A stretch of DNA of 4,239 bases from a virus (Duplodnaviria; Heunggongvirae; Uroviricota; Caudoviricetes): positions 1 through 4,239 of the IMG/VR virus record IMGVR_UViG_648276671_000009; one strand, 5' to 3'. Shown piece after piece: positions 1-4,239 of the stretch; position 1 is the stretch's first letter; each line of letters opens with the position of its first letter. The translations under genes were made by a program, and so were the position numbers. Under the pieces are notes generated by a model. It did not search any database, was not told where the DNA came from, and saw only the letters and a list, made by a program, of their open reading frames with translations.

Positions 1-246
1 CCGAGAGTATACTGGAAGAACATGGACTGGATAGTCGCCCATAAAGGACAACTGGTGGAGCGGTTGATGCGGCTTAAAAAATTTCCCCGAACGCTTTACG
101 ATCGTAAAAAGTTGAATATCCTGTTAAGAGTGGTTACTACGCCACACAGCTTAAACCCGCCGATGAGCGGGTTTTTTATGCCCGAAAAGTGGCACAGGGC
201 GTTAAACGCGCTGGTGGTTGCGAATGCAGGCCTCTCAGTTTGCTGA
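1..246 (+). CDS. hypothetical protein, 3' portion (5' end outside window); possibly a late-gene regulator (Q-like) by position only
   Basis: Frame 1 is open from position 1 with no in-frame stop until TGA 244-246; the track ORF 22-246 is the internal Met. Followed by an AT-rich spacer, a promoter-like element and the tRNA array, as downstream of Q in lambdoid phages. No diagnostic motif recognised, so the product is a guess. Confidence 0.45.
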   Translation, partial: PRVYWKNMDWIVAHKGQLVERLMRLKKFPRTLYDRKKLNILLRVVTTPHSLNPPMSGFFMPEKWHRALNALVVANAGLSVC

Positions 247-376
247 TTTTTTAGACAAGATTTATTTAGCCAGGCGTATCCAAAATAAAAATAATCGTTA
301 TATATGAGAATTTTTTCTTATTTTTAGAAACAAGAAAAATATATGCGGATATTTACGATTGCTGACGTTATCTTTA

Positions 377-405
377 TTGAGCTCGTTCGAGGGGATTCGT
401 ATTAT
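377..405 (+). promoter_or_regulatory. candidate sigma70 promoter for the tRNA array (possible late promoter pR' analogue)
   Basis: TTGAGC (377-382), 17-nt spacer, TATTAT (400-405); predicted start near 412, about 25 nt upstream of the first tRNA. A -10-like AATGAT lies at 421-426 in the initial transcribed region. Confidence 0.35.
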
Positions 406-436
406 ACGCCGCGCCAGCGCAATGATGCGACGGGCA

Positions 437-513
437 GGCCCTTTAGCTCAGTTGGTCAGAGCGAGCGACTCATAATCGCCAGGTCGCTGGTTCAAATCCA
501 GCAAGGGCCACCA
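437..513 (+). tRNA. tRNA-Ile2 type, anticodon CAU (lysidine type; automated tools often call it tRNA-Met)
   Basis: 77 nt with cloverleaf: acceptor GGCCCTT/AAGGGCC, D-arm GCTC..GAGC, anticodon loop CTCATAA (CAT at 471-473), T-loop TTCAAAT, encoded CCA. Close to my recollection of E. coli ileX. Confidence 0.85.
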
Positions 514-514
514 A

Positions 515-587
515 CCGCCACTAGCTCATCGGGAAGAGCGGCAACTAAATGTTGTAGTACGAGGTTCGAGGCCCCGGTGGCGGTCCA
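515..587 (+). tRNA. tRNA-like element with aberrant anticodon arm (pseudo-tRNA or non-canonical tRNA)
   Basis: 73 nt: perfect 7-bp acceptor stem CCGCCAC/GTGGCGG, D-arm GCTC/GAGC, T-arm with GTTCGAGG, encoded CCA. The anticodon arm GCAAC-TAAAT-GTTGT has only a 5-nt loop, so no canonical anticodon can be assigned. Confidence 0.5.
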
Positions 588-589
588 GT

Positions 590-665
<76 letters not shown>

Positions 666-668
666 TAT

Positions 669-743
<75 letters not shown>

Positions 744-1108
744 GCATTTGAAACAAGCCTTATTGTATTGTGGCACTGGCGTATTTTTTTATTACGTGTG
801 AGCAGGTTGTATTGAAAAAGCATTCTGTTCTCTGGCTATGATTTGAGGCCGGGTGTAGCCTCAGTGCTGATTTTTTTACGGCAGCAGAATGGTGCATTAT
901 CGGTGGAGATTTTGTATTTCCTGGCAGGGGCGGTGATGCATCATTCTGGTGTTGTAAAAGCACCGCAGAGGCGTTCCTCAGTGCGAGGGTGGTTTAAAGA
1001 GTCGGTTTAGCGGGAAACCACAGTATCCATACAGAACGGAATACTTCGGGAGGCACCCGACGCCTCGATTCTATTACAATTAAAAATTCATCCTTTGCAT
1101 TGACCAAC

Positions 1109-1132
1109 CGCCTCCACCAGGCGATTTTTTTA
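1109..1132 (+). terminator. putative rho-independent terminator
   Basis: Stem CGCCT (1109-1113) / AGGCG (1119-1123), loop CCACC, then A plus T7 (1125-1131). Confidence 0.45.
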
Positions 1133-1223
1133 TTCTGAATTCAGTTTCTCCAGGCTCGCTACGGCGGGCCTTTTTCATATCCGCGCCACGCCCGGCGCAC
1201 ATCAAAAACCACAGAGCCTTTCA

Positions 1224-1293
1224 GGGGTGAGCTTACGGGATGGTCAGTGTGACTTTCTCTGTGGGCTGGTCACCCCCGGGCGCAGGCTCACCC
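1224..1293 (+). promoter_or_regulatory. repeat-rich leader upstream of the TerB-like gene (candidate operator or RNA structure)
   Basis: Inverted repeat GGGTGAGC (1225-1232) / GCTCACCC (1286-1293); direct repeat GGGATGGTCAG (1237-1247) / GGGCTGGTCAC (1263-1273); short complementary pair GTGAC (1249-1253) / GTCAC (1269-1273). The RBS AGGA 1301-1304 lies just downstream. Confidence 0.3.
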
Positions 1294-1312
1294 ACTAAAA
1301 GGAAAAGTCACG

Positions 1313-1738
1313 ATGTTTGGTATTTTCAAAAAGAAAGCACGTAAAACTTTCACCGAAGTTAAGAAGTTTGAGAACCGCGACGCAGTGGAGGCGACCGTCT
1401 GGGGCGCGTATTCCATTGCATTTGCCGACGGCACCTGCGATGCGAAAGAAATCGCGGTACTGGAGAAAACCATTGCAGCACTTCCTGCTTTTGCGCCGTT
1501 CTCCGGTGAGATTGCACAAATGAGTGCAAATATCCGCGCCCGTTATGAAGCGTCGCCGCGTTCAGCCAATGCCGAAGCCCTCCGTCAGCTGGCTGATGTC
1601 GCCGGTACTGATGACGCGGTGAATGTGCTGTGCCTGTGTCTGGATATTGCAGACCAGGATGGCATTGGTCCGGATGAAGAAGTGCAACTCAAGAAAATTG
1701 CTCAGGCGCTGCAGTTACCACTGGAGCAGTACCTGTGA
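1313..1738 (+). CDS. TerB-like domain protein (tellurite-resistance TerB fold), 141 aa
   Basis: ATG 1313 preceded by AAAAGGAAAAG RBS. Two copies of the TerB-type helix-pair motif: IAFADGTCDAKEIAVLEKTIAAL and LCLDIADQDGIGPDEEVQLKKIAQAL. Typical E. coli codon usage; overlapping ORFs in other frames look like junk. Confidence 0.7.
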   Translation: MFGIFKKKARKTFTEVKKFENRDAVEATVWGAYSIAFADGTCDAKEIAVLEKTIAALPAFAPFSGEIAQMSANIRARYEASPRSANAEALRQLADVAGTDDAVNVLCLCLDIADQDGIGPDEEVQLKKIAQALQLPLEQYL

Positions 1739-1887
1739 AAAGTGCGCGCCTTGTGCTGGCTGCCATCCTGCTGTTTCTGGTAGTGGCGGTGGATTTCACC
1801 GGACGGCTGATGTCGGTGCTGGCAGATGGTGTGCTGGTGGCGGTGGTGCTGGTCGTGATCCGGCCTTTACTGCGCAAGCCTGAATAA
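1735..1887 (+). CDS. small hydrophobic two-helix membrane peptide (50 aa), translationally coupled to the TerB-like gene
   Basis: GTG 1735-1737 overlaps the upstream stop TGA 1736-1738 (GTGA); GGAG at 1722-1725. Translation VKSARLVLAAILLFLVVAVDFTGRLMSVLADGVLVAVVLVVIRPLLRKPE, stop TAA 1885-1887. Below the track's length cut-off. An alternative ATG start at 1810 would give a 25-aa product. Confidence 0.45.
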   Translation: MKSARLVLAAILLFLVVAVDFTGRLMSVLADGVLVAVVLVVIRPLLRKPE

Positions 1888-1896
1888 CACCACACA

Positions 1897-1919
1897 AAAG
1901 GCATCTGCGGGTGCCTTTT
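1897..1919 (+). terminator. putative terminator hairpin (first of a tandem pair)
   Basis: 9-bp stem AAAGGCATC / GGTGCCTTT with tetraloop TGCG, ending in TTTT. Confidence 0.45.
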
Positions 1920-1938
1920 ACGGGGTGTTGTTTTTTAC

Positions 1939-1960
1939 GGGCCGCTGGTGGCCCTTTTTT
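1939..1960 (+). terminator. rho-independent terminator
   Basis: Stem GGGCC (1939-1943) / GGCCC (1950-1954), loop GCTGGT, followed by T6 (1955-1960). Confidence 0.7.
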
Positions 1961-1978
1961 ATTTACAGGAGAAAAAGT

Positions 1979-2373
1979 ATGTCTGAACCCTTGTCCGGCT
2001 CCGGTACGGCTGCGGCGCTCGGTGGGGCGACGGTATTCGGGCTGTTTACCGGGACGGATTTCGGGATTGTGTTTGGCGCGTTCGCCGGGGCGTTATTTGT
2101 GGCAACGATCCACAGGCAATTTCAGCCTGGCGGGTGGCAGCGCATTTTCTGGTGTCGTTCATTATCGGCGTGCTGGGCGCAGAGGTGCTGGCATCCTTGC
2201 TGGTAAAGCATACGGAGTTTGACGGTGCGCCTGTCGACGCATTGTGTGCCGTGCTGGTTTCGGTGGTGTCGGTGAAGATTCTGTCGTTCATCCACCAGCA
2301 GGATATCGCATCACTGGTGTCCGGCCTGTTCTCCCGTCTGCGTGGCGGAGGAGGTGGCGGCAATGTTAAGTAA
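1979..2373 (+). pseudogene. class I-like holin (3 TM) interrupted by a 1-nt frameshift in a G-run near 2129-2136; intact gene would encode about 131 aa
   Basis: ATG 1979 with AGGAG RBS. Frame 2 gives MSEPLSGSGTAAALGGATVFGLFTGTDFGIVFGAFAGALFVATIHRQ and then W/C/R-rich nonsense. Frame 1 from about 2134 gives two clean helices (AAHFLVSFIIGVLGAEVLASLLV, ALCAVLVSVVSVKILSFI) and a tail ending RGGGGGGNVK, stop TAA 2371-2373. The span is 395 nt, which is 396 (132 codons) with one added base; the junction is ggcgggtgg. Confidence 0.6.
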
Positions 2374-2638
2374 CCTTCCCGGATTGCTGAATGTGGCGGT
2401 ATGCACGGTTATCGTGCTGACGCTCTTTTTTTATCGTCGTCGTGACTCCAGACATAAACCGCTGATGTCATGGCTGGCCTGGCTGCTGATGCTGCTGTAT
2501 GCCTTTGCACCCCTCAGCTATCTGTGTGGTCGCCCGTTAGCAACGGGCTGGCTGGAAGTGTTTTTTAATCTGCTGTTCTGCGTGCTGGTGATACGTGCAC
2601 GCGGGAACGTCGCAAGAATCTTTCCATTGTTGAGGTGA
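2363..2638 (+). CDS. holin-like / antiholin-like membrane protein (3 predicted TM), 91 aa
   Basis: ATG 2363 preceded by GGAGGAGG; overlaps the upstream stop by 11 nt. Hydrophobic segments LLNVAVCTVIVLTLFFY, LMSWLAWLLMLLYAFAPLSYL and WLEVFFNLLFCVLVI, with a basic C-terminus. Stop TGA 2636-2638 sits 2 nt before the endolysin start. Confidence 0.7.
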   Translation: MLSNLPGLLNVAVCTVIVLTLFFYRRRDSRHKPLMSWLAWLLMLLYAFAPLSYLCGRPLATGWLEVFFNLLFCVLVIRARGNVARIFPLLR

Positions 2639-2640
2639 AT

Positions 2641-3018
2641 ATGTCGGGTAAATTCAGATTCAGCCGTCGTAGTGAAAAAAATCTGGAGGGCGTCAAACCA
2701 CAGCTGGTTGCTGTCGTTCGCCGTGCGCTGGAACTGTCGGAGGTTGATTTCGGTATTACGGAAGGCCTGCGCACGAAAGAACGCCAGAAGCAGCTGGTCG
2801 CGGAAGGGAAAAGCCAGACCATGAACAGCCGCCACCTGACCGGTGATGCGGTGGATGTTGTTGCCTGGGTTGGCAGTCAGGTGTCATGGGACTGGCCTCT
2901 GTACGAGAAAATCGCGCAGGCATTTAAGCAGGCTGCCGCAGAGCTGGGAACTGCCATCGAATGGGGCGGGGACTGGCGGACGCTTAAAGACGGCCCACAT
3001 TTTCAATTGAAGCGATAG
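2641..3018 (+). CDS. endolysin, peptidase M15 family (L-alanyl-D-glutamate endopeptidase, T5 Lys-like), 125 aa
   Basis: ATG 2641 with GAGGTG RBS. Zn-peptidase motifs SRHLTGDAVDV, WGGDW and DGPHFQL (His/Asp/His ligands). Lies immediately after two holin-like genes. Confidence 0.9.
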   Translation: MSGKFRFSRRSEKNLEGVKPQLVAVVRRALELSEVDFGITEGLRTKERQKQLVAEGKSQTMNSRHLTGDAVDVVAWVGSQVSWDWPLYEKIAQAFKQAAAELGTAIEWGGDWRTLKDGPHFQLKR

Positions 3019-3035
3019 CCTGCAAAACATACAGG

Positions 3036-3058
3036 GCCGCCATGAGCGGCTTTTTTAT
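3036..3058 (+). terminator. rho-independent terminator after the endolysin
   Basis: Stem GCCGC (3036-3040) / GCGGC (3046-3050), loop CATGA, then TTTTTTATT. Confidence 0.65.
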
Positions 3059-3088
3059 TGCTCAAAAAAAGAAAGAACGGAGGTACGT

Positions 3089-3370
3089 ATGTACGCACTG
3101 AAAAAAATCACGGTAACGGAAGATGGGCGTCAGGTTGAAGAAGTGCATGTTCTGGGGAATATGTATCGCCTGGAATTTTACCCGCGCAACACTCACCTTG
3201 CTGCCCGGGTGGAGTATTGCCGGGATGGAAATGTGCCATGCATTTCGGTGGAAAAAACGGATGAAGCCTACATCACCACGCTGGCGGGTGACACGGTGCG
3301 TTGTATCTGTCGCGGTAACAGTAAAGCCCGGGATGAAATAGCAAAATGTCGCAACACTACTGATAAATAA
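3089..3370 (+). CDS. hypothetical Cys-rich soluble protein, 93 aa
   Basis: ATG 3089 with GGAGG at 3079-3083 (5-nt spacing). Five Cys (44, 51, 72, 74, 87) including a C-x-C; no TM segment or signal peptide. Not recognised as Rz. Confidence 0.7.
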   Translation: MYALKKITVTEDGRQVEEVHVLGNMYRLEFYPRNTHLAARVEYCRDGNVPCISVEKTDEAYITTLAGDTVRCICRGNSKARDEIAKCRNTTDK

Positions 3371-3376
3371 AAAGTC

Positions 3377-3409
3377 AAAACCCCGGCTGGGGGAACAGTC
3401 CGGGGTTTT
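3377..3409 (+). terminator. strong, probably bidirectional, terminator
   Basis: Perfect 10-bp stem AAAACCCCGG (3377-3386) / CCGGGGTTTT (3400-3409) with a 13-nt loop; U-rich 3' arm on the + strand and a T-run also follows on the - strand. Confidence 0.7.
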
Positions 3410-3443
3410 GTGTATTCTGACCTTGAGTAAGGCAAGGAAGAAC

Positions 3444-3626
3444 ATGGAGAAGTATAAACGAATTCTGTTGAGGTTGACTATGAAAAACGGCCTTGAATTG
3501 AAAGCGCCTGTAACTGATGACATCAGCAGAGCGGTGGCTTTTGCTATTAAGTGGGTGGCGGTTGGCATCGCCGTGTCTCCGATGCTGTATGGGCTGGCAA
3601 AATTGATTGTTGCTCTGAAATCGTGA
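3444..3626 (+). CDS. small membrane protein with C-terminal TM helix, 60 aa (alternative start ATG 3480 gives 48 aa)
   Basis: ATG 3444 after AAGGAAG; the alternative ATG 3480 follows GAGG with 6-nt spacing. Hydrophobic C-terminus AVAFAIKWVAVGIAVSPMLYGLAKLIVAL. Stop TGA 3624-3626 is 8 nt before the next start. Confidence 0.5.
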   Translation: MEKYKRILLRLTMKNGLELKAPVTDDISRAVAFAIKWVAVGIAVSPMLYGLAKLIVALKS

Positions 3627-3634
3627 GTGGTGAT

Positions 3635-3817
3635 ATGACGCGAAAACACTGGACACACAGAATGCCGCGAACGGCGGCGAAATGGGCACTGGTAGCGATA
3701 CTGCTGCCTTTTTTATTGGTGGGGTGCGTCAGCCTGGATAAGGCGCGTCAGGTTATTCACATAGCAGAGCAGGTCTGCGAAATTGTCGACAGTGTCCGGC
3801 AGTGTATGCAGAACTGA
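3635..3817 (+). CDS. small predicted lipoprotein, 60 aa precursor with about 30-aa mature part (alternative start ATG 3662)
   Basis: Signal peptide with positive n-region, hydrophobic core WALVAILLPFL and lipobox LVGC; mature part CVSLDKARQVIHIAEQVCEIVDSVRQCMQN has 3 Cys and is not proline-rich, so unlike Rz1. Confidence 0.6.
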   Translation: MTRKHWTHRMPRTAAKWALVAILLPFLLVGCVSLDKARQVIHIAEQVCEIVDSVRQCMQN

Positions 3818-3829
3818 ACGCCTGTGAGC

Positions 3830-3889
3830 GCAGAATATTTTGCTGAAAAATGTCGGTGATTACGCTGTCCGGAAAGCATGAAATTCTGC
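3830..3889. repeat. imperfect 15-nt inverted repeat separated by about 30 nt (candidate operator or RNA stem-loop)
   Basis: GCAGAATATTTTGCT (3830-3844) pairs with AGCATGAAATTCTGC (3875-3889) at 13 of 15 positions. Confidence 0.4.
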
Positions 3890-3987
3890 ATTTGTGGTCA
3901 TTCAATAAAATAAATTCTTTCTGCTGCTGTAAATACACAAATGTGAACCGAACCCGGTGCGGCGACGGGCTTCGATATGAGGAGACG

Positions 3988-4239
3988 ATGATGGAAAAAA
4001 CAGAAAACAAACCGATTGTAATTGGTGCTGATGCTGCTCCGTTTAAGTTTGAGTTGTCTCAACTGGTGGAGATGCGCATCAGTGATGAATGGGGTGAGGT
4101 TAAAGCCCGCGCGCAGTATGCGGATGGCGAAAACCAGTACTTACTCCACTACAAAGCTGCTGATGGTCGCGCCACGACGGAGTGGTTTGGTGAGTCAATG
4201 CTGGAAGCAACAGAAGATGATGATCATCCGGGCTGGTCC
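3988..4239 (+). CDS. hypothetical acidic protein, N-terminal 84 aa (3' end outside window)
   Basis: ATGATG 3988-3993 preceded by GAGGAG; frame open to the window end. Begins MMEKTENKPIVIGADAAPFKFELSQLVEMRISDEWGEV. Absent from the track because no stop is reached. Not similar to lambda Nu1 as I recall it. Confidence 0.6.
   Translation, partial: MMEKTENKPIVIGADAAPFKFELSQLVEMRISDEWGEVKARAQYADGENQYLLHYKAADGRATTEWFGESMLEATEDDDHPGWS

Follow-up and report, generated by a model that had tools for sequence, protein, structure and literature searches.

A conserved, structured leader RNA ahead of a prophage TerB-family gene: a probable translational gate in enterobacterial phages

What is the role of the dense repeats that precede a cargo gene in the late region of a prophage? 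The question is raised by a DNA window of 4,239 nucleotides (nt), positions 1 to 4,239 of the IMG/VR virus record IMGVR_UViG_648276671_000009 (Caudoviricetes), which corresponds to the late region of a lambdoid prophage resembling phiP27. Here a TerB-family gene (terB) and a gene for a small DUF3927 membrane protein form a cargo cassette, and an earlier note on this DNA had read the repeats upstream of terB either as an RNA stem or as paired operator half-sites, proposing that the cassette is regulated. Regulated expression may reasonably be inferred from the sequence. A comparison of about 200 copies points to positions 1183-1312 as, probably, a structured 5' leader of the terB-DUF3927 mRNA, acting in cis and on the + strand upon translation initiation through two competing folds, as a portable translational gate.

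The repeats described in the earlier note have been located where it placed them. The outer inverted repeat (GGGTGAGC at 1225-1232, GCTCACCC at 1286-1293) extends to 13 nt (1225-1237 with 1281-1293, 85% complementarity), the direct repeat (GGGATGGTCA at 1237-1246, GGGCTGGTCA at 1263-1272) is identical at 9 of 10 positions, and GTGAC (1249-1253) is complementary to GTCAC (1307-1311). Three inverted repeats that had gone unlisted have also been detected, namely CCACAGAG (1209-1216) with CTCTGTGG (1257-1264), GGGGTGA (1224-1230) with TCACCCC (1270-1276) and CGCCCGG (1189-1195) with CCGGGCG (1276-1282). When positions 1200-1320 were compared with 300 dinucleotide-preserving shuffles, the actual sequence proved to have three perfect 8-mer and seven 7-mer inverted repeats; the shuffles averaged 0.13 and 0.52, and none of them reached either number. 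The direct repeat lies within chance, as it was equalled or surpassed in 62 of the 300 shuffles when scored as 11-mers with at most two mismatches and in 39 when scored as 10-mers with at most one.

Copies of the leader were collected from relatives of TerB and by pattern scans of IMG/VR, a phage collection and E. coli genomes, the collection scans using exact patterns and not being exhaustive. They stem from lambdoid prophages and Erwinia jumbo phages and have been sorted into seven sequence classes. Classes 1-4 lie ahead of terB genes, the proteins of which are down to 42% identical to each other, and classes 5-6 ahead of a gene for an unrelated 281-residue secreted protein of the TAXI/NMT1_3 solute-binding family. 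Class 7 is found directly 3' of a tRNA in lytic Erwinia jumbo phages, where terB, a small open reading frame (ORF) and a TAXI gene follow. The leader travels as a unit and is more conserved than the gene behind it, with nucleotide identities for leader and coding sequence of 99.2 and 91.0%, of 84.3 and 59.9% (proteins 42% identical) and of 78.5 and 56.7%; ahead of a wholly different gene the leader is still 73-74% conserved. Decayed copies of the gene have decayed leaders too. The conserved block always starts at the equivalent of position 1183, and upstream of it the copies have a tRNA, a single or double terminator, or unrelated DNA.

What is conserved is a secondary structure on the mRNA strand, backed by compensatory changes. 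Its elements (Table 1) are a 5' hairpin, P0, the loop of which pairs with a downstream segment, C'; the helix A/A'; a small hairpin, hp; the outer stem B/B' and, adjoining it, a helix between an anti-Shine-Dalgarno (anti-SD) segment and the Shine-Dalgarno (SD) region; and an alternative partner of B, termed B''. RNAalifold recovers P0, A/A' and hp from 53 sequences in a MAFFT alignment that was left unfitted. In the same alignment, a set of helices comprising P0, P0 loop/C', A/A', hp and B/B'' is paired in 95.8% of cells, compared with 39-51% when slid by 1-3 columns, and includes 45 cells with changes on both sides against 10.3 in shuffles. A set comprising P0, hp and anti-SD/SD with B/B' is paired in 92.9% of cells, compared with 35-48% when slid, and includes 28 such cells against 5.3; neither count was reached in any of 500 shuffles, and nearly all broken cells belong to class 5 rows, which MAFFT had shifted by one column. 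Within this alignment P0 is paired in 98.5% of cells, with both-sided changes in two of its five pairs, A/A' is paired in 99.8%, with both-sided changes in 10 and 17 of the 53 sequences, and pair 18-112 of P0 loop/C' reads CG in 41 sequences and UA in 12. A structure-guided alignment, fitted by hand to 68 unique sequences of the seven classes, yielded the pairing given for five helices in Table 1, and in each of the five the observed pairing was reached by 0 of 500 shuffles. Covariation across homologous prophages, the means by which the earlier note would have had its stem checked, has been detected in the outer stem as well, with the distal pair 1234/1284 changing between U-A and A-U. Many of the changes turn G-C into G-U and keep the pairing on the + strand only; since such substitutions are neutral only there, the constraint acts on the + strand RNA.

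The individual helices show how far the sequences diverge. For P0, the variants GCGCC/GGCGC, GCACC/GGUGC, GCGUC/GACGC, CACAC/GUGUG and ACAUC/GAUGU have been observed, and its loop and C' occur as CGCCC/GGGCG, CGCUC/GAGCG, GUGCC/GGCAC and GGCUC/GAGCC. Helix A/A' is found as CCACAGAG/CUCUGUGG, CCUCAGAG/CUCUGAGG, CCUGCAGAG/UUCUGCAGG and CCGUAGAG/CUCUACGG. In the anti-SD/SD helix, pair 1223/1296 alternates among A-U, G-C and C-G across classes, and the adjacent 1222/1297 is a conserved mismatch (C.A, C.C or C.U), which classes 1-4, 6 and 7 never replace by a standard pair; in class 5 the mismatch moves by one position, to A.A at 1221/1298. The changes in B'' within the terB and TAXI classes are all C to U, U to C or A to G, and remain pairable with the invariant G-rich B (94% paired). 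Two-sided evidence for B/B'' is provided by locus L305, where B and B'' have changed together (GGAAAUGA with UCACUUC). The small hairpin, which holds the first copy of the direct repeat and GTGAC, is 100% paired, with variation between A-U and G-U only; it is invariant in classes 1-6, absent from class 7 and replaced by other inserts in divergent relatives. The short complementary pair of the earlier note belongs to two longer strings, GUGACU (1249-1254) and AGUCAC (1306-1311), which are invariant in classes 1-6 ahead of two different genes and are both absent from the jumbo-phage variants L315 and L316; the Asesino variant reads GUUACU/AGUGAU, where pairing is still possible.

These helices can be accommodated in a model with two folds. 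In the closed fold (Fold I), B/B' would continue across a 1-nt bulge (A1294) and the mismatch C1222/A1297 into the anti-SD/SD helix, the AAGG of the ribosome-binding site would be buried, and the P0 loop would dock on C', beside B'. The outer repeat had been described as an RNA stem ending about 8 nt before the SD; it does correspond to a conserved helix, but the end point does not stand, for the pairing of 1217-1224 with 1295-1302 reaches the AAGG itself. In the open fold (Fold II), A would pair with A' inside the loop of the long helix and B with its nearer partner B'', and together they would form an H-type pseudoknot in which the anti-SD segment is loop 1, pulled away from a free SD; A/A' with B/B' would likewise make an H-type pseudoknot. 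RNA polymerase reaches A, B, A' and B'' earlier than B' and the SD, which gives the open fold the opportunity to form first; the closed fold would be the thermodynamic sink in a model limited to nested pairs. In such a model, which ignores pseudoknots and tertiary contacts, the closed, SD-burying fold is the predicted minimum free energy (MFE) structure in six of eight class representatives; in the window's own class it lies 3.3 kcal/mol above an alternative that uses B/B''. When the RNAs are truncated before B', the predicted MFE structure has B/B'' in the representatives of all seven classes.

As A' lies in the loop, some 18 base pairs (bp) from the base of the long helix, and A abuts the anti-SD segment, the mutual exclusion of A/A' and B/B'' with B/B' and anti-SD/SD, all of them conserved, can be argued from geometry. 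A/A' and an anti-SD/SD helix zipped along its full length can hardly form together, so that alternation between the two folds is to be expected, presumably also in vivo. Candidates for what shifts the balance are a general signal, a trans-acting factor, kinetic control and nuclease processing. The leader would then be an expression module that is portable; its architecture, built from other helix sequences, recurs before many unrelated lambdoid accessory genes, usually after a terminator. No conserved upstream ORF was found in the leader, the frame in the window from GTG1227 to TAA1298 being interrupted in other classes, and no T run follows B' or any other leader helix, terminator-like sites being present only upstream and downstream of the cassette; control by a leader peptide and transcription attenuation therefore do not apply. 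Two other pairings were considered. That of GUGACU with AGUCAC is incompatible with the long helix, as only 3 nt would have to span 18 bp; the MFE helix of the window's leader between 1231-1240 and 1257-1266, which lacks a consistent register in other classes, was dropped in favor of the covarying A/A'.

Several observations weigh against a gate with two folds. The sequence on its own has a folding energy that departs only marginally from that of shuffles (z = -1.6 to -1.8), and for this reason the significance of the leader rests on the repeat count and the comparative data. Within the terB and TAXI classes B/B'' shows only one-sided changes, the structure-guided alignment was fitted by hand, and P0 loop/C' in class 5 requires a register shift of 1 nt. 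Few independent lineages are represented, seven classes and about five divergent subfamilies, so that the shuffle statistics overstate independence. A promoter for the leader was not identified in a scan of 700-2100, the origin of the transcript being deduced. The alternation is likewise deduced from conserved helices that are incompatible, and a single, strained pseudoknotted fold might conceivably be what the RNA adopts instead.

Table 1. Coordinates of the leader elements and of neighboring features in the window; pairing and both-sided changes refer to the structure-guided alignment.
Feature	Positions	Strand	Description	Cells paired	Pairs with both-sided changes
tRNA genes	437-743				
Terminator-like hairpin	1109-1123		terminator 1109-1130		
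Intrinsic-terminator-like hairpin and T run	1152-1176	+	stem 1152-1171, then TTTTT; adjoins 5' end of leader		
P0, 5' hairpin	1183-1198	+	GCGCC-ACGCCC-GGCGC; strands 1183-1187 and 1194-1198; conserved leader begins here	98.5%	4 of 5
PK0 5' half (P0 loop)	1189-1193	+	CGCCC; pairs with 1278-1282 (P0 loop/C')	99.7%	4 of 5
A-rich single-stranded linker	1199-1208	+	4-20 nt long across copies		
A	1209-1216	+	CCACAGAG; 5' strand of A/A', directly 5' of anti-SD segment	99.6%	2 of 9
L1, anti-SD segment	1217-1224	+	CCUUUCAG; pairs with 1295-1302 (anti-SD/SD); conserved mismatch	87%	2 of 8
B	1225-1234	+	GGGUGAGCUU; 5' strand of outer stem, pairs with 1284-1293 (B/B')	94.9%	2 of 11
hp, small hairpin	1242-1254	+	GGUCA-GUG-UGACU; strands 1242-1246 and 1250-1254		
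A'	1257-1264	+	CUCUGUGG; 3' strand of A/A'		
B''	1270-1276	+	UCACCCC; alternative partner of B, pairs with 1224-1230; overlaps second copy of direct repeat		
C', PK0 3' half	1278-1282	+	GGGCG; one base 5' of B'		
B'	1284-1293	+	AGGCUCACCC; 3' strand of outer stem		
SD region	1295-1303	+	CUAAAAGGA; anti-SD partner 1295-1302, SD AAGGA 1299-1303		
AGUCAC and start codon	1306-1315	+	AGUCAC 1306-1311, then ATG 1313-1315		
TerB-family (TciA-like) cargo gene	1313-1738	+	141 residues; PF05099, E = 6.5e-6, 26.9 bits (cut-off 24.4)		
DUF3927 (TciB-like) small membrane protein	1735-1887	+	PF13064, E = 3.8e-15; start overlaps terB stop codon		
Convergent terminator-like hairpins	1893-1960		- strand hairpin 1922-1893; + strand hairpin 1939-1954, then T run		

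Other readings of the locus have to be weighed against that of a translational gate. That the repeats arose by chance, their conservation merely recording the recent spread of one prophage module, is hardly credible: many E. coli copies are indeed nearly identical and single-sequence folding is not strongly unusual, but the inverted repeats exceed those in all 300 shuffles, the leader is more conserved than the coding sequence also in cases where the encoded proteins share 42% identity or are unrelated, five helices show compensatory changes, and decayed genes carry decayed leaders. Selection at the level of DNA, whether for operator half-sites, for a protein-binding or recombination site or, in a milder form, for a homologous linker used in cargo swapping, appears very unlikely. 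It would account for the density of the repeats, for a junction between shared leader and differing genes that falls exactly at the start codon, as a recombination linker would have it, and for the insertion of ISEc20 (IS110 family) in one copy. The operator half-sites, however, which the earlier note saw in the direct repeats, find no support, given that this repeat is within chance and that its second copy is not conserved, other classes reading GGGCTGATCA, GGGCAGATCG, GGGCGATCAC and GGGCGACCAC. In many cases pairing survives a change only as G-U on the + strand, something that selection on a duplex-DNA site would not favor, and complementarity is maintained while the helix sequence changes completely, as befits a folded strand and not a duplex site recognized by its sequence. 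The linker role may be real in evolution, yet it leaves the covariation unexplained.

Among the readings that place the element on the RNA, an RNase III or RNase E site, or a protection or stability element, has been considered, in which cleavage rather than refolding would relieve the burial of the SD and the mRNAs of accessory genes would be cut from a long late transcript, or stabilized; the lambda N leader and the T7 intercistronic sites are models for such processing. This is rather unlikely, although the long helix of 18-19 bp with its bulge and internal mismatch, the single-stranded A/U-rich linker adjoining a stable 5' hairpin, the position just 3' of terminators or tRNAs within a polycistronic late operon and the unrelated genes downstream, which fit a generic signal for mRNA handling, would all suit it. 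Processing nonetheless leaves unexplained why A/A' and B'', conserved and covarying, should compete with the long helix, and it would not be needed in phage phi80, where the leader stands in a divergent intergenic region with an extended -10-like motif that was read by hand and is unverified. A metabolite- or ion-binding riboswitch, with the pseudoknotted 5' domain as aptamer and a ligand that chooses the fold, is an improbable alternative. The complex, conserved and covarying architecture, in which two pseudoknots are joined to an expression platform containing the SD, would be in keeping with it, as would terB and the TAXI-family solute-binding protein being linked cargo, found together in jumbo phages, but the wider family is found ahead of 15 or more unrelated genes that share no metabolic theme, the internal domain is readily replaced from one subfamily to another, few conserved unpaired bases are available for a binding pocket, and no Rfam riboswitch matches. 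About equally improbable, or slightly more so, is an RNA thermometer, in which the weak, mismatched anti-SD/SD helix, clamped by B/B', would melt at the body temperature of the host. The SD sits in a short, imperfect helix next to a conserved mismatch and a bulge, features typical of the ROSE and fourU types, and many of the hosts are gut Enterobacteriaceae. Against this, the predicted probability that the SD is unpaired is nearly flat from 20 to 50 C in the eight class representatives under the nested-pairs model, with its neglect of pseudoknots and tertiary contacts; lytic jumbo phages that infect the plant pathogen Erwinia amylovora carry the element too, and a simple thermometer has no need of the extra covarying helices P0 loop/C' and A/A'.

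The translational gate would rest on a principle with known precedents, and the leader is rated as a new family working by such a principle and as a member of none of the systems compared. The start region of the lambda cIII mRNA, in work attributed to Altuvia, Oppenheim and colleagues, reportedly adopts two mutually exclusive folds in which the SD or start codon is occluded or exposed, with the balance between them setting the translation rate. This is a lambdoid mRNA with alternative folds over the SD, as proposed for the leader; the cIII folds reportedly include the beginning of the coding sequence and respond to RNase III and temperature, whereas the leader lies wholly in the 5' untranslated region (UTR), docks a 5' hairpin loop, is portable before many genes and shows no similarity to cIII in sequence or architecture. 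The preQ1-II, SAM-II and add adenine riboswitches act on translation through a pseudoknot or SD sequestration. They share with the leader a conserved, covarying, pseudoknotted 5' UTR in which alternative pairing sets the accessibility of the SD, but the leader has no Rfam match, precedes unrelated genes, has an exchangeable internal domain and implies no ligand. In ROSE and fourU thermometers the SD is held in a short, imperfect helix with adjoining non-canonical positions, and such positions are conserved in the SD helix of the leader too; the leader lacks the signature of either type, and differs in having its SD helix clamped by a 10-bp G+C-rich stem and in its additional long-range helices. 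The isrK-orf45 mRNA of Gifsy-1, reportedly described by Hershko-Shalev and colleagues in 2016, is said to be a translationally inactive prophage mRNA that is activated in trans. It resembles the leader as a prophage accessory mRNA silenced by its own structure until opened, but the architecture of the leader is different and the scans gave no IsrK (Rfam) match.

When the 4227 covariance models of Rfam 15 were searched, no match at E <= 1 overlapped 1183-1312, nor was there any on the jumbo-phage copies L313 and L316 (E <= 1) or on the TAXI-type copy L209 (E <= 5). The RefSeq annotation of a close E. coli relative has nothing at the site of the leader, and in the literature on tciA, on terB and riboswitches, on pseudoknotted prophage leaders and on STnc100 no description of it was found. 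A ZTP riboswitch (on account of a GGUCGUGACU-like string), a T-box (UGGU) and an NMT1/xanthine motif were dropped, as they lack Rfam support. Small RNAs (sRNAs) have been reported from the same neighborhood, which in lambdoid prophages extends from Q/PR' to the lysis genes: AgvB and AsxR are prophage sRNAs of the PR' 'moron' site (PMC4104026), and PasA, PasC and STnc100 are prophage sRNAs as well, with TerB genes reported within 10 kb of PasA and PasC (bioRxiv 10.64898/2026.05.13.724894); STnc100 and PasD have been reported in a preprint as related. AgvB, AsxR, PasA, PasC and STnc100 are short, terminator-ended and trans-acting, and lie 3' of the moron coding sequence or between esterase and holin genes, whereas the leader is the 5' UTR of the cargo gene and has no terminator of its own; the position of AgvB, AsxR, PasA and PasC 3' of the cargo gene rules them out as the identity of the leader, and no AgvB, AsxR or STnc100 match falls on 1183-1312.

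The family extends beyond the terB and TAXI leaders. A covariance model built from these detected, at other sites of the same prophages, copies of far greater divergence, in which the whole architecture is kept with different helix sequences, and a pattern scan placed one such subfamily at no fewer than 120 loci in IMG/VR (at least 120). In the divergent copies P0 loop/C' reads UGCCC/GGGCA, CGCAC/GUGCG or CGUAC/GUACG, A/A' reads GAAAGU/ACUUUC, GAGAG/CUCUC or CACAGAA/UUCUGUG, B/B' reads GAUGAGCCUUG/CAAGGUUCAUC, GAAAUGAGCCUUUG/CAAAGGUUCAUUUC, AUGAACCUCG/CGAGGUUCAU or GUGAGCCUG/CAGGCUCAC, and an anti-SD UCUUUCAG faces CUAAAAGG. Behind them are genes for HNH endonucleases, for a Rha regulator and for ten or more proteins that are unrelated and have no known function, and most of these copies come after a terminator-like hairpin and T run. 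Across 5426 complete E. coli genomes, the terB-type leader is present in 1222, at 2642 places and up to six times per genome, and that of a second subfamily in 242. A subfamily-2 leader is also carried by phage phi80 (a prophage in the E. coli laboratory strain DH5alpha, L473 2960-3115) between the lysis genes and the terminase, where it precedes a gene for a 243-residue hypothetical protein, located between Rha and the small terminase subunit; the extended -10-like motif, recognized by eye as TGATATAAA, precedes the 5' hairpin by about 30 nt.

The covariance model detected no leader in phage P1 or in six other terB phages (Schitoviridae, Vibrio, Pseudomonas and Pantoea). The tciA gene of P1 encodes a protein 84% identical to the TerB protein of the window and has no leader, and the regions upstream of the six other phage genes are short or unrelated, which rules out a general 'terB motif'; the family thus belongs to enterobacterial lambdoid and Erwinia phages and is not a property of terB. 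A genome scan for TerB relatives returned seven loci, three of which (L002-L004) have unrelated leaders. The matches listed for the loose pattern GGGTGAG N{40,65} GCTCACCC were mostly due to chance, and a metagenome pattern that excluded the common classes gave 30 stretches, one of them real (an Asesino-like phage), and no new class. The TAXI/NMT1_3 protein (L209 7363-8208, L313 1893-2713) matches PF16868, and TIGR02122 below the cut-off of that model; its gene lies directly behind the leader in some prophages and 3' of terB and a small ORF in Erwinia jumbo phages, which suggests a functional link between TerB/TciA and the TAXI-family binding protein.

It is conceivable, though doubtful, that the family constitutes an unrecognized class of portable, self-contained, double-pseudoknotted 5' UTR translational gate, which travels with the 'moron' genes of enterobacterial phages and couples the translation of cargo to a common signal, the same module acting in DNA as a homologous 5' linker for cargo swapping. 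Such a signal could lie in co-transcriptional folding behind Q-modified as opposed to ordinary RNA polymerase, in an RNA-binding factor of phage or host, or in an ion. If the model with two folds holds, one shared modular RNA device controls a large share of lambdoid accessory genes post-transcriptionally, among them TerB/TciA-type genes and those for TAXI-type binding proteins, HNH endonucleases and Rha, together with many unknowns, and there would be a concrete account, testable by mutation, of how cargo behind late-operon terminators stays silent or is released. The leader also provides a clean new family for RNA databases and a marker for the boundaries of cargo cassettes in prophage annotation.

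The setting of the leader is that of a phage late operon. In a close E. coli relative the gene order is RusA, Q, tRNAs, leader, terB, DUF3927, holins, endolysin and terminase, and in the window two holin genes and an M15 endolysin gene follow the cassette, which is closed by the convergent hairpins 5' of the holin genes. The earlier note's label for the cargo gene, TerB-like, agrees with its Pfam match, and the gene next to it is annotated 'TciB-like' in related phages. Of the classical 'moron' features, a downstream terminator and a site between Q and the lysis genes are present. Sequence shared with other phages begins at 1152 (hits H1 and H11), the start of the hairpin that adjoins the leader, and an equivalent hairpin and T run lies 5' of most copies of the family. 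A search for sigma-70-like promoters found none in 700-2100 and none upstream of the L209 copy; none adjoins the leader, and the transcript most probably arrives from upstream by read-through of the terminators at 1109-1130 and 1152-1176, which is plausibly dependent on Q as late, antiterminated transcription.

Minor observations concern the surroundings. By eye, a stop codon TAA at 40-42, probably the 3' end of the Q gene, a strong terminator at about 153-178 (AAACCCGCCGATGAGCGGGTTTTTT; candidate tR') and a good sigma-70-like promoter before the tRNA genes (TTGAGC, 17 nt, TATTAT; 377-405) can be recognized. ARAGORN places a tRNA-Phe (anticodon AAA) at 515-587, between tRNA-Met and tRNA-Thr; it is probably degenerate, since the Rfam tRNA model reports the other three tRNAs only. 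Matches to STnc100 (RF02076) below its gathering score of 47 bits occur at 941-1135 (18.5 bits), ending at the terminator 1109-1130, and just upstream of tciA in phage P1 (L347 1348-1467; 33.4 bits). Between the DUF3927 and holin genes, 1888-1978 holds a CA-rich stretch and then the convergent hairpins; this is the position reported for sRNAs of the AgvB/AsxR and PasA/PasC type, and has no Rfam match to those families. The Phage_holin_8 gene at 1979-2370 is split over two frames (1979-2203 covering profile positions 1-44, 2134-2370 covering 54-121), a frameshift, and the prophage may therefore be lysis-defective, unless the sequence is in error. Interrupted leaders have been found in L262 and L310 (both after about 1283), in L299 (after about 1266) and in L312 4042-5500 (LC567818 and 10 related records), where ISEc20 lies inside the leader just after CCTTTCGGGGG, at about 1227, and the remaining leader, terB and the lysis genes are missing.

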